A DNA stretch of 64,000 nt, taken from an uncultured bacterium (GTDB lineage: Bacteria > Zixibacteria > MSB-5A5 > GN15 > FEB-12). This document shows, piece by piece, positions 60,044 to 63,943 of this stretch (position 1 is the first letter of the stretch; each line of letters opens with the position of its first letter). The stretch is from NCBI GenBank assembly GCA_965372795.1, contig CBDVDR010000008.1, forward strand, positions 64,001 through 128,000, in the 5' to 3' direction. Below the pieces are notes generated by a model. That model was not told the DNA's origin, did not search any database, and saw only the letters and a program-made list of their open reading frames with translations. The position numbers and the translations under genes are program-made.

Positions 60044-60196
60044 ATGAAAAGAACATATCAACCTTCGAGAAGAAAAAGACTGAACGACCACGGTTTTAGA
60101 AAACGTATGTCGGACAAAAACGGTCGGCTAGTCCTTGCCAGGCGTCGCGCTAAAGGCAGAAAGAGACTAACTCCTACCGTTGCAAAAAGAAAATAA
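60044..60196 (+). CDS. rpmH: 50S ribosomal protein L34 (not in ORF track)
   Basis: Translates to [50 protein letters not shown]. Confidence 0.97.
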
Positions 60197-60527
60197 ACTT
60201 CCCAGAACTTTAAGCCTGAAAAGCAAGAATGAGATCAGTCAACTTTTTGACTCAGGCAATAAAATTCATGGGAGTTTGTTTACTTTGATTTGGGAAGTGA
60301 GCGATAATTTTAAGTACGGGATATTTGTCTCGAAAAAAACCGGCAGCGCTGTTGAAAGAAATAAAATTAAGCGGTTTTTTCGGGAAGCTGTCCGGCTTAA
60401 TAAAAATAAACTTGAAAAAGTTTATAAATTAGGATTTCTTCCCAGAAAAACAATGAAACCCGAGTTTGACCAGATAAATGCCGAAGTCAATCGAATATTC
60501 TCAGCGCTTAACGATGCAGGAAAGTAA
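60180..60527 (+). CDS. rnpA: Ribonuclease P protein component
   Basis: [20 protein letters not shown]; follows rpmH. Confidence 0.93.
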
Positions 60528-60747
60528 AACCTCCTTATTTGCTTACCCATTAATATTTATTATTTACATGTACCGATATTCTTTATCTTCAATTATCGGT
60601 AATCAATGTCGCTTTATGCCGACTTGTTCGCATTATGCTGAGGATGCTTTAAAAAAATATGGAGCTGTAAAAGGGTCTGTTATGGCTGTTAAACGAATAT
60701 TCCGATGTCACCCCTGGCATGCAGGAGGATATGATCCGGTCGAATAG
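60514..60747 (+). CDS. yidD: Membrane protein insertion efficiency factor
   Basis: CRFMPTCSHY, RIFRCHPWHAGGYDPV. Confidence 0.95.
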   Translation: MQESKTSLFAYPLIFIIYMYRYSLSSIIGNQCRFMPTCSHYAEDALKKYGAVKGSVMAVKRIFRCHPWHAGGYDPVE

Positions 60748-60826: not shown

Positions 60827-62539
60827 TTGGATAAAAAGAACATAATATTGATCGTAGCGTTAGTTGTAGTAGCAATATTTTACTTCCAGATAATGGAATT
60901 TCTGGGTTATTACACTCCCCCAACTTCGCAACCTGTAGTTACTGATACAGTTACGGTATCACAAACGACTCCTGAAACTCAGCCGATGCCTGTTGAAATA
61001 TCAGCAGAATCAATGGATGTAACCAGACAAGTAATAGCAGCCCAACCGGTTACAGATTCGTTAGTCAGTGACACTATTATTGTTAAGACGCAAATGTATG
61101 AGATTATGTTAACTTCATTCGGAGGTGGACCGGTCTCAATCAAATTGAACAATTATGACTATCGTAATGATGTCAAAATTGAAATGTTACCTGAATCAAC
61201 CTCCCCTACTCCTGAAGCGATATTTGCCGGCGGTACTTTTTCCACTTCTAATATTCCTTACACATCAAATCTTCAAGCAGGTACTTATGAAGTAACCTCT
61301 CAACCACTTGAAATTGTCTACACTTATGCTTTAAGTGTTGGTGGTGAGATTATAAAAAAATATACCTTCAATCCTGATAAATATAATTTTGATCTGGTTC
61401 TTGAAGTAAATCAGCGCGAAAGATTTGGATTTGAACGCAAATATAATATGATGTGGAACTCCCCGATTGGAGTCACCGAGCCACAGTCTGATATTGATTA
61501 TCAGGCGATGGAAGCAGTCGCTATGATGATGGGTGAGCGTGAAACGCTTGATGATTATGATGACAATGATAAACTAAATCAGACTCTTGCCGGTTCAACT
61601 TCGTGGGCAGGAGTTCGTTCTAAATATTTTGCGGCTGTAATAATTCCGCGCAACAGAGTTGCCGAAGGTGCTATTGCTAAAGGTTTCAAGTCAGAGAAAC
61701 TTGAACCGGATGGATCTTCAGTAGAAGCCCGTTCGATAACCGCCGGTTTAGAAATGCCATTTGCAAATGTCAGTGTTATTTCAGACAGTTTTACAGTTTT
61801 TGTTGGTCCTCTTGATTACACAGCGATGTCCGGTTACGATGTCGGACTTGAGGATATTCTTGGAATTGGAACAACGCCATTTGTCGGATGGATAATCAAA
61901 CCATTTGCAATCGGATTAATTTGGATTCTTCCCAGGATCTATGATTTTGTTCCCAACTATGGTATCGTAATTATTCTTATAGCTTTCTTAGTAAAAGTTA
62001 TAACTTTGCCTTTGTCTATGAAAGCCTTCAAGTCGATGCAGGCAATGAAAGAACTTCAACCAAAAATTGATGAGCTTAAAAAGAAGCATAAGAAAAATCC
62101 TCAGTCGTTAAATAAGGAGATGATGAAACTCTATAAGACGCATGGGGTAAGTCCGCTGTCGGGCTGTTTACCGATGCTTCCCCAGATGCCTCTTCTCTTT
62201 GCCATGTTTGCAGTTATTCGCCAGACGATTCTACTTCGTGACGCACCCTTTTTCTGGTTTATTGATGATTTGTCAAGGGGCGCATCCGGCATAATGGATC
62301 CTTATATTATTCTGGTCATCTTTATGATTGGGGCACAGTTTATCTCACAAAAATTAACGATGGCAACCAATCAACAGAATAAAGCGATGATTTATATGAT
62401 GCCGTTGATGATGGGCTTTTTCTTCTATTCCTTCGCTTCCGGACTGGTTCTATACTGGGCCTGCTTCTCAATCTTCTCTTTGATAGATTATTTCTTATTC
62501 AAACGTAATAAAAAAAATGCGCATGTTAAGGTGGCATAA
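60827..62539 (+). CDS. yidC: Membrane protein insertase YidC
   Basis: N-terminal TM, periplasmic domain, NYGIVII, LQPKI, GCLPML.QMP, GLVLYW. Confidence 0.96.
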   Translation: MDKKNIILIVALVVVAIFYFQIMEFLGYYTPPTSQPVVTDTVTVSQTTPETQPMPVEISAESMDVTRQVIAAQPVTDSLVSDTIIVKTQMYEIMLTSFGGGPVSIKLNNYDYRNDVKIEMLPESTSPTPEAIFAGGTFSTSNIPYTSNLQAGTYEVTSQPLEIVYTYALSVGGEIIKKYTFNPDKYNFDLVLEVNQRERFGFERKYNMMWNSPIGVTEPQSDIDYQAMEAVAMMMGERETLDDYDDNDKLNQTLAGSTSWAGVRSKYFAAVIIPRNRVAEGAIAKGFKSEKLEPDGSSVEARSITAGLEMPFANVSVISDSFTVFVGPLDYTAMSGYDVGLEDILGIGTTPFVGWIIKPFAIGLIWILPRIYDFVPNYGIVIILIAFLVKVITLPLSMKAFKSMQAMKELQPKIDELKKKHKKNPQSLNKEMMKLYKTHGVSPLSGCLPMLPQMPLLFAMFAVIRQTILLRDAPFFWFIDDLSRGASGIMDPYIILVIFMIGAQFISQKLTMATNQQNKAMIYMMPLMMGFFFYSFASGLVLYWACFSIFSLIDYFLFKRNKKNAHVKVA

Positions 62540-62543
62540 AAAG

Positions 62544-63943
62544 TTGACACCTAAAAAAAAAAGTTAACTACTCTTAGCGGCAATGAAACCATTGCCGCTA
62601 TCATAACTCCCCCCGGAGAAGGCGGTATTGCCGCTATCCGTCTTGCTGGCAAACAAAGTTTATCAATTTTAGAAAATCATTTTTCTTTTAATAATAAGAA
62701 TGAAAAATCATTCAAGCCGTTTTTGATGAGATTCGGACTTTTTAATAATAATAATAATGAGATCATAGATGAAATTACGGCAGTCTTTATGCCGGAAGGT
62801 AAATCATACACCGGACTGGAACAGGTTGAAATCTTTTGTCATGGCGGACAACAGGTTGTTACAAAGATTTTAAATGAATTACTTTCATCCGGAGCCAGGG
62901 CAGCCGAACCGGGAGAGTTTACCCAACTTGCATTTCTATCCGGAAAAATTGATCTTCTGAAAGCTGAGGCTGTTGCTGAGATAATTGCCGCCAATACCGA
63001 ACATTCATTTGAGACAGCCCGGGAACATCTTTTGGGAAGTTATTCAAATGAAATTGAGAAAATACGAGATTCTATCATTTCTATAATAGCAGAAGTCGAA
63101 GCCTCGATTGATTACCCTGAGGAAGAGATCGACCCATCCGACAGGCGAGGCCTGTTAGACACAATTTCGAAGTTAGTGGATGATATAGAAGCCCTTGAAG
63201 AAACATATCAGGGTGGGAAAATTATTAATGAGGGGTATAAAATCGCCATTGCGGGACGCCCTAATGCAGGTAAGTCATCTTTGTTCAACCAGTTACTTAA
63301 AAAAGAACGGGCTTTGGTAACTTCTACTGCCGGAACGACCAGGGATTACCTTTCGGAATGGATCGATCTCGAAGGTTTTGCAGTCAATATTATTGATACT
63401 GCCGGAATTCGTAAGGGTGGCGGTAAAATTGAAAAGGCTGGTCAAAAATCGGCTAAGAAAATAATTGATTCTTCAAATATGGTACTGTGGATTTACGATT
63501 TGTCCCGGAAAAGTTGGAAAAATGAACTTGAAACTGACATGAAAACGATGCAACACAGTAATATAACATTTATAGGCAACAAGAATGATCTGGTCGAAGC
63601 TAATGATGTTAAAGAATATAACAATTATGAATCAATAGCTGTCTCTTGTGTAACCGGATCCGGAATTAAAAAATTAAAAAAAGAGATTATAAAGAATATA
63701 GAGAATAAAATGCCTGATTTCACATCCGGTTTGATTGTAACCTCTGCCAGGCATCAACAAAAATTGAAAATAGCAAACGGTTGTTTACAAAATGCAAAGG
63801 AATTGATCACAATATCAGAATCCCCGGAGATTACAGCAGTTGAGCTACGTTCAGCAGCATCGGCGATTGATGAGATAACCGGCAAGGTATATACAGAGGA
63901 GATATTAGGTAAAATATTCTCGAAATTCTGTGTCGGCAAATAG
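62544..63943 (+). CDS. mnmE: tRNA U34 modification GTPase MnmE; 5' end frameshifted at A10 run (62553-62562)
   Basis: ETIAAIITPPGEGGIAAIRLAG (from 62585) in frame with ORF 62723-63943; GRPNAGKSS, GTTRD, DTAG, NKND, FCVGK. Confidence 0.93.

Follow-up and report, generated by a model that had tools for sequence, protein, structure and literature searches.

A conserved out-of-frame run of A's at the start of mnmE in Zixibacteria as a probable site of programmed −1 recoding

The stretch of 64,000 nucleotides (nt) analysed here, called the window below, spans positions 64001-128000 of contig C8 of the Zixibacteria genome G000 (3.35 Mb, 69 contigs, 38% G+C) and carries near its end the junction of yidC and mnmE, at which the start codon and the frame encoding the tRNA-modification enzyme MnmE are out of step. 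The membrane insertase gene yidC is an open reading frame (ORF) on the plus strand (60827..62539; Pfam 60KD_IMP 1e-53 and YidC_periplas 1e-17) that closes with TAA at 62537-62539, and the TTG at 62544-62546 begins 4 bases past this stop and 9 nt downstream of a Shine-Dalgarno-like AAGGTGG within the final yidC codons (62528..62534, plus strand). From this TTG the zero frame reads TTG ACA CCT AAA AAA AAA AGT TAA, a mini-ORF of seven codons (62544..62567, plus strand) with its stop at 62565-62567; ATG 62517 and ATG 62523 share its frame and are alternative starts of the mini-ORF, likewise out of the MnmE frame. The MnmE frame is the −1 frame relative to TTG 62544, and the run of ten A's (A10; 62553..62562, plus strand) is the candidate slip site, at which the start codon would be joined to the MnmE frame either by one A added to the mRNA or by a −1 slip of the ribosome on A_AAA_AAA.

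The main frame of mnmE (62555..63943, plus strand) consists of 462 codons followed by TAG at 63941-63943 and finds matches in 41 of 41 relatives. Its product possesses the complete MnmE/TrmE domain set, with the N-terminal domain, the helical domain and the Ras-like G domain recognized by Pfam on window positions 62555-63940 (TrmE_N 7e-33, MnmE_helical 2e-52, MMR_HSR1 7e-21), and it ends in ...SKFCVGK, whose final ...FCVGK matches what we take to be the C(I/L/V)GK C-terminal motif of the family. Upstream, the frame is closed by the TAA at 62552-62554, formed by a T and the first two A's of the run, so that a shift has to fall within the A run. The frame holds no ATG, GTG or TTG upstream of the conserved ETIAAIITPPGEGG / ETIAAI at 62585; the earliest canonical in-frame start, TTG 62723, would give a product of 406 amino acids (aa) and delete the conserved N-terminal domain. 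One added A, on the other hand, yields a 466-aa MnmE. An earlier note on this DNA had described the N-terminus in a frame closed by TAA 62552 and lacking a canonical start, the TTG start 4 nt past the yidC stop and after AAGGTGG that halts at AGT TAA, and the full-length 466-aa product obtained by one extra A; sequence and ORF reading bear out all three.

The need for a −1 correction at the A run, also put forward in that note, holds well beyond the window. The GTDB family of the window comprises 108 genomes, 106 with the MnmE N-terminus, and provides 104 usable yidC-mnmE junctions; four genomes fall outside this set (G044 and G059 without a match, G120 with its match at a contig edge, G102/L114 at a contig end), while locus L008 was dropped as its match starts at residue 50 and genome G001 is represented by L111. 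In 37 of the 104 junctions the segment from the yidC stop to the conserved N-terminus contains a run of nine or more A's, and in 36 of these 37 the proximal start stands at 3n+2 from the conserved N-terminus and requires the −1 correction. The shifted layout occurs in 18 of the 46 genera of the family, five of which are mixed, and the sole long-run exception, L080, has its A10 in frame in a 7-contig assembly. The other 67 junctions do not exceed A8; in 61 of them mnmE has an ordinary start in frame, in five (L042, L108, L054, L066, L075) an in-frame ATG lies within the last yidC codons, and one, L097, is treated below. The in-frame relatives encode the same Lys-rich N-terminus through runs of A8 or shorter or runs interrupted by AAG, again with L080 as sole exception; examples are ATG TGC CCG AGA AAA AAG AAG in L014 and GTG AAA AAA AAG in L024, and runs of A7-A8 are tolerated in frame (L065, L024).

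Outside the family, a motif scan (A9, 30-60 nt, degenerate TPPGxGG codons) of one genome per species in 185,579 species returned 53 stretches, 42 of them encoding the MnmE N-terminus. These 42 comprise 26 repeats of the family loci, 12 further Zixi-type genes and four genes from other phyla (Chromatiales, Companilactobacillus, Legionellaceae, Prevotellaceae), all four with in-frame starts. Of the further Zixi-type genes, the records of which are titled Candidatus Zixiibacteriota or in some cases labelled Ignavibacteriales or just 'bacterium', 11 of 12 have ATG at 3n+2, mostly followed directly by A10, and L164 has ATA at that place. Within the phylum, the motif is found in 47 of 285 genomes, distributed as 33/107 plus the window genome in family f1, 12/33 in f4, 1/1 in f12 and 0/143 in the other 17 families, and a reversed control pattern gave no match across the same 285 genomes. 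The motif scan of the JGI metagenomes gave at least 119 stretches; among the matches listed, at least 32 encode MnmE and at least 28 are of the Zixi type, four of the latter repeating earlier loci. In all 28 of these listed Zixi-type contigs the start stands at 3n+2, the run being A10 in 26 and A9 in two, and the four listed contigs of other types have in-frame starts. The slip layout is kept in at least 24 genera.

One public contig titled Promethearchaeota archaeon (L155, coverage about 0.4) shows a Zixi-type mnmE start, ATG-AGT-A10 at 3n+2, with first residues 89% identical to those of the window; it is probably a mis-binned bacterial contig within an archaeal metagenome-assembled genome.

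The anatomy of the slip site was compared in 47 species, made up of 36 family genomes and 11 further Zixi-type species. The run is A9 in eight, A10 in 38 and A11 in one; the start codon is ATG in 41, GTG in three and TTG in three and lies 3-18 nt from the run in 46 species, L131 being scored at a TTG 45 nt upstream and having also an ATG directly before the run. With respect to codon phase, 37 runs are in phase 0, seven in phase 2 and three in phase 1. The zero-frame peptide (5-37 aa) is not conserved, which indicates that recoding would serve the level of expression and not a second product. The stop formed by T and AA closes the MnmE frame in 13 of the 47 species, and 34 of 47 possess no in-frame ATG, GTG or TTG anywhere. 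At least two Zixibacteria families show the feature, which comes in two layouts, ATG-x-x-A10 and ATG-A10. The shifted start lies at a median of 6 nt from the yidC stop as compared with 7 nt for the start of plain relatives; as it sits at the place of the plain start, the shifted genes look like plain genes that are one base short in a run of Lys codons.

Shine-Dalgarno backing for the shifted start is weak and equal in the two classes, with 5-mers of the motif at 6/47 shifted starts and 9/66 plain starts versus 22/1860 control positions; in this scoring the AGGTG 5-mer of the window was placed 15 nt upstream of its start.

A gene one base short in a homopolymer calls for a look at the assembly. 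The earlier note had named a homopolymer assembly error as the simplest alternative, in which the real genomes would be one A longer and mnmE an ordinary in-frame gene, and had added that other genes looked intact. Long homopolymers are indeed error-prone and some of the relatives were assembled into one or a few contigs; however, the same offset in 36/37 long-run family genomes, assembled in 1 to 640 contigs, and in all of the 28 listed Zixi-type metagenome contigs speaks against an error, as does the identical correction required whether the run has 9, 10 or 11 A's. The window genome contains 111 A/T runs of nine or more (102 of length 9, eight of length 10, one of length 12), and 25 of them other than the mnmE run (21 of length 9, four of length 10) are embedded in frames without a stop for 40 codons or more to either side, so that this assembly calls such runs in frame and the intactness of other genes is confirmed at long runs. 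An in-frame A11 or A12 version was seen nowhere among the genomes and the metagenome matches listed. An assembly error is therefore very improbable and does not stand as the simplest alternative; from its sequence, the out-of-frame layout of mnmE is a conserved, selected feature, far beyond chance as it recurs in dozens of species.

The same material bears on phase variation, the other possibility raised at the outset, in which slippage of the DNA would toggle mnmE within populations as at a contingency locus. Homopolymers of such length mutate fast, and an A10 run would in principle suit such a switch. Yet among about 70 sequences, the metagenome part being that of the matches listed, no in-frame A(n+1) allele occurs; that it is missing despite fast-mutating runs suggests that the out-of-frame state is kept by selection and argues against phase variation. 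All species representatives except one are in the 'off' register, L080 being the only in-frame length variant among the genomes with none in the 28 listed contigs, and in seven related contigs (L113, L173, L181, L217, L232, L253, L282) A10 is constant while the flanks vary. A housekeeping tRNA-modification enzyme is also an unlikely contingency gene, and phase-variable expression can be regarded as highly unlikely.

A further alternative is that translation begins past the run, in the MnmE frame itself and without any shift, for example at the ATT of ETI or at AAG. That weak starts of mnmE may occur in the phylum is suggested by L023 and L025, which seem to begin the gene at ATA/ATC. On the other hand, from 62555 to 62585 the window has no near-cognate codon accompanied by a ribosome-binding motif, and the E/D-T residues that precede the Ile codon are conserved while their codons vary synonymously, so that translation would have to begin further upstream. 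As such a start would leave the constant run of at least nine A's and the 3n+2 offset unexplained as well, non-canonical initiation is extremely unlikely.

L023 (about 1432-1500) and L025 belong to the sister family f4, and their mnmE is without a canonical in-frame start; the ATA/ATC stands six codons before DTI and 6 nt past a GGAG-type motif. This Ile codon may be a non-canonical start and as such another way to hold MnmE synthesis low.

From the observed layout, its conservation and its constant offset we infer that mnmE is likely to be expressed through programmed −1 recoding at the A10 run, most likely by slippage of RNA polymerase, with a possible contribution of a ribosomal −1 slip. 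Initiation would take place just past the yidC stop, at TTG 62544 or a same-frame ATG, and on unaltered mRNA translation would end after seven codons; the A10 begins three codons past the start. RNA polymerase would slip on the T10 template to give mRNAs with one extra A, a −1 slip of tRNA-Lys(UUU) on A_AAA_AAA might add to this, and full-length MnmE of 466 aa would arise only from events corrected by −1. An added A and a tandem slip by −1 predict an identical junction peptide, (M/L)TPKKKKLTT.... If the reporter values for 9-11 A's in fs-chlD, the recoded chelatase gene considered below, can be transferred, perhaps a third to a half of the events would yield MnmE. The purpose might then be an output of MnmE well under that of the co-transcribed yidC, and possibly a tunable one.

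The sole universal signal among the shifted genes is the run of at least nine A's. According to PMC5009743, bacterial RNA polymerase slips efficiently from nine onwards and mostly adds A's, a length that matches the 9-10 base-pair (bp) RNA-DNA hybrid, and separate tRNA-Lys for AAA and AAG in Thermus are tied there to polymerase slippage replacing ribosomal frameshifting. In the window genome, tRNA-Lys genes with UUU and with CUU are likewise separate. The length of at least nine A's, the constant need of one base, the lack of sites of 7-8 nt and the two tRNA-Lys together favour programmed transcriptional slippage. Two hallmarks of slippage are found, a long A homopolymer at the frame junction and an offset conserved across species, with in-frame relatives other than L080 free of the run; a third, mRNAs of mixed run length from uniform DNA, would be expected. 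Of the mechanisms that the earlier note had considered, slippage-dependent expression is thus the best supported, as the run is A9-A11 and the offset constant in all 47 shifted species.

A second −1 break at a long run in the same genome is found in a gene with known recoding. At C3:143750-143759 (locus L168 1451-1460) an A10 in GAA AAA AAA AAG TAA ends a 397-aa AAA+/Mg_chelatase ORF, and past the run the −1 frame enters a 367-aa VWA ORF (Pfam). As judged by these domains the gene belongs to the published poly-A recoded chelatase (fs-chlD) family, for which reporters in E. coli gave 63%, 40% and 10% shifting with 11, 9 and 7 A's, respectively, as reported in PMC3711429; its assignment to dnaX was considered and rejected, given the AAA+/Mg_chelatase and VWA domains. 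It is the only −1 break at a long run in the genome besides mnmE. The frame-break signature as such was recorded at four runs, one of which is spurious, with the run inside an ORF on the other strand, while two A9 runs, at C9:105871 and C16:32218, lie at adjacent genes that have their own starts.

Several observations weigh against slippage of the polymerase as the whole explanation. The heptamer A_AAA_AAA stands at 62555-62561 in zero-frame phase, and although it is trivially present in any run of nine or more, in any phase, a phased A_AAA_AAA in every such run permits a ribosomal route. Phase 0 prevails in 37/47 runs, and pure transcription slippage does not require a phase; the excess could come from shared ancestry or from Lys coding. 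In six genomes of two genera (L047, L058 and L091; L051, L073 and L093) a stem of 12-15 bp starts 2-4 nt past the run, which is the geometry of a ribosomal stimulator. L097 (genome G053) has an ATG at the usual place with the offset 3n+2 and neither an A run nor an in-frame canonical start, a state that may reflect an assembly error (640 contigs), a CTG start or something else. Moreover, the run lengths are those of the assemblies and the heterogeneity of the mRNA is a prediction, and as the genomes are related the counts exaggerate their independence.

The first of these points would fit a rival explanation, a mainly ribosomal and autoregulated shift. Here tRNA-Lys(UUU) would slip by −1, and as modification of its wobble U34 by MnmE/MnmG would lower the slipping, low MnmE activity would raise MnmE synthesis in a loop resembling that of release factor 2 (RF2). 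Out of roughly 3000 genes, just two break into the −1 frame at a long A run, and one of them encodes the modifier of the AAA-reading tRNA; since a CUU isoacceptor exists, AAA would be read by tRNA-Lys(UUU) only. As described in PMC3296357, E. coli with hypomodified tRNA-Lys(UUU) shifted more often by −1 at the G/GT site of lambda, and deletion of mnmE impaired lambda infection like deletions in the thiolation pathway, with increased frameshifting blamed in the model of the authors; iterated AAA codons perturb E. coli ribosomes (PMC4363877). The preference for phase 0 and the strong stems close to the run in the six genomes fit this loop as well. However, no shifted gene has a slippery site of 7 or 8 nt, all having at least nine A's, whereas A7-A8 is tolerated by in-frame relatives; the hairpin in the mnmE 5' region is neither universal nor specific to the run and lies 12-13 nt off in the window; the chelatase gene has the same A10 without a link to tRNA modification; and mnmG, just downstream (contig C8 from about 128115), has an ordinary ATG start. 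A mainly ribosomal, autoregulated shift is thus unlikely. That the slip is at least partly ribosomal and sensed via the modification of tRNA-Lys(UUU), so that under-modification would lead to more slipping and more MnmE, can be held only tentatively, while a feedback loop via under-modified tRNA-Lys, as the earlier note had proposed, is plausible as such.

The hairpin itself is well defined in the window. A perfect 11-bp stem, TAGCGGCAATG-AAAC-CATTGCCGCTA (62575..62600, plus strand; arms 62575-62585 and 62590-62600), starts 12 nt after the A10 run with its 3' arm within the ETIAAI codons, and ATTGCCGCTATC (62591-62602) is repeated at 62627..62638 on the plus strand, where it codes for IAAI, which appears there for the second time in the N-terminal domain; this copy could act as an alternative pairing partner for the 5' arm of the hairpin. 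Folding of a 131-nt stretch predicts this stem with a minimum free energy of −41.7 kcal/mol (z = −5.0), and none of 200 shuffles is as stable; stem and recurring 3' arm are hence as first described. Between the window and its congener (rows L001 and L111) an A-T pair is replaced by G-C in a compensatory manner, AAT->GAT opposite the synonymous ATT->ATC. Stems of at least 7 bp in the same register are found at 22/104 family junctions versus 14/624 control registers, and in a pair-count test 56.7% of cells are paired versus 52.9% in shuffled alignments, with a covariation score of 0.219 versus 0.171 (both 0/500 shuffles), but a register slid by +3, that is by one codon, performs equally (55.0% paired, score 0.224).

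The alignment of related junctions, which had been suggested to look for a conserved out-of-frame A run plus hairpin, therefore gives a divided answer: the out-of-frame run is conserved (36/104), whereas the accompanying hairpin is not conserved with the run, the same-register stem of at least 7 bp being equally common in run-bearing (8/37) and run-less (14/67) relatives. Given this and the spacer of 12-13 nt, the hairpin was rejected as a conserved frameshift stimulator, as which it had been proposed. A fold z-score of −2 or lower is reached by 14/37 run-bearing and 15/67 run-less relatives. In genus g5 (L005, L039, L044, L059) mnmE is in frame and run-less and yet carries a 14-15-bp stem in the register of the window hairpin, which argues for a role of the hairpin unrelated to the slip site. 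As read from these comparisons, the hairpin is a feature of the mnmE 5' end in the family, real in a subset and untied to the run. Other signals of ribosomal frameshifting were not found: no internal Shine-Dalgarno precedes the slippery site by about 10 nt, AAGGTGG ending 20 nt before the heptamer, and a conserved stimulatory structure about 5-9 nt downstream is absent, close stems being confined to the two genera, with six genomes, named above. Just ahead of the run, where hairpins are placed in slippage of the insertion sequence (IS) element type, stem lengths match those of shuffles without enrichment, and an Rfam search of the region returned four matches, all far under the gathering scores. 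A separate case is L036 (genome G057), where the A9 run is followed, ahead of the conserved N-terminus, by a hairpin of 14 perfect base pairs, CAACGACCGGCAGC-ATG-GCTGCCGGTCGTTG, that has an in-frame ATG in its loop.

Among known recoding systems, the mnmE site resembles the slippage at A9 in Thermus thermophilus dnaX as presented in PMC5009743, with which it shares the homopolymer of at least nine A's, the mostly added A's, the lack of an obligatory stimulator and the separate tRNA-Lys for AAA and AAG. In Thermus dnaX, though, the unslipped mRNA gives the full-length and the slipped mRNA a short product, both of them functional, whereas unslipped mnmE mRNA would give a throw-away peptide of seven residues and slippage would be needed for the sole functional product; furthermore, the mnmE site stands at codons 4-6 and not mid-gene. 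The fs-chlD genes (Antonov et al. 2013, PMC3711429) are, by that account, alike in the −1 correction at A9-A11, in a downstream part made only after the shift and in conservation across genera. They differ in gene family and site position and in yielding two large products, AAA+ alone and the AAA+-VWA fusion, where mnmE yields one.

With E. coli dnaX, which combines A_AAA_AAG with an internal Shine-Dalgarno and a downstream hairpin, mnmE has in common a slippery site of Lys codons read by tRNA-Lys(UUU) and, in the window and some relatives, a GC-rich hairpin downstream. Unlike in E. coli dnaX, all mnmE sites have at least nine A's, A_AAA_AAG is not among them, the hairpin lacks specificity for the run and lies 12-13 nt away in the window, and the Shine-Dalgarno-like motif, 20 nt upstream of the heptamer, is located where initiation and not frameshift stimulation would expect it. 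An obligatory early shift for the sole functional product is shared with prfB, the gene for RF2, and if the shift were ribosomal and autoregulated, so would be the setting of shift efficiency by the product's own activity; yet the shift is +1 in prfB and −1 here, the site CUU UGA with a Shine-Dalgarno there and poly-A here, and the feedback is a feature of prfB. Rescue of out-of-frame genes with long A tracts by presumed polymerase slippage is described for the endosymbionts Buchnera and Blochmannia in PMC5009743, and mnmE is named once in this context, in PMC12188211, among Walczuchella pseudogenes with long poly(A) tracts. In contrast to these lesions, which are sporadic and occur in degenerating genomes, the mnmE site has a fixed position, its hosts are free-living with genomes of 3 Mb, and at least 24 genera have kept it.

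No description of conserved mnmE/trmE recoding was found in the papers searched, the supplementary cluster lists of PMC3711429, which could include mnmE, lying outside the search, and none pairing Zixibacteria with slippage was found. As read here, the case is that of a known trick, programmed poly-A slippage, at an unusual position directly past the start codon and in a suggestive gene. To our knowledge, conserved recoding in ordinary bacterial chromosomal genes is rare, with prfB, dnaX and the chlD-type chelatase among the known examples, and mnmE would add a housekeeping gene with an obligatory slip at codons 4-6 that no fewer than 24 genera of an uncultured phylum have retained. Gene callers will label such mnmE genes as truncated, split or pseudogenes. 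As the product of the recoded gene modifies the very tRNA that reads its slippery codons, a feedback between tRNA modification and frame maintenance is directly testable. If ribosomal feedback were true, a tRNA-modification enzyme would for the first time be seen to control its own synthesis by recoding, in a −1 counterpart of the RF2 loop that at least two Zixibacteria families evolved or retained in two layouts.

With respect to the surroundings of the locus, overlapping ORFs at window positions 60044-60747, upstream of yidC, look to us like rpmH, rnpA and yidD, so that the region presumably represents the classic rpmH-rnpA-yidD-yidC-mnmE cluster with mnmG following. At one of the two A9 runs between adjacent genes (C9:105871-105879, minus strand), the run lies in the final codons of a coaC-like ORF, whose stop then overlaps the start of a coaB-like ORF in TAGTG; the names are assumed from motifs, and the usually fused coaBC appears split here. 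Finally, an in-frame A10 two codons past an ATG occurs at C19:2441-2450 on the minus strand, in a gene with the signal peptide-like N-terminus MQNKKKMKSVLFVLICF..., which indicates that long in-frame runs near starts are tolerated in this genome.

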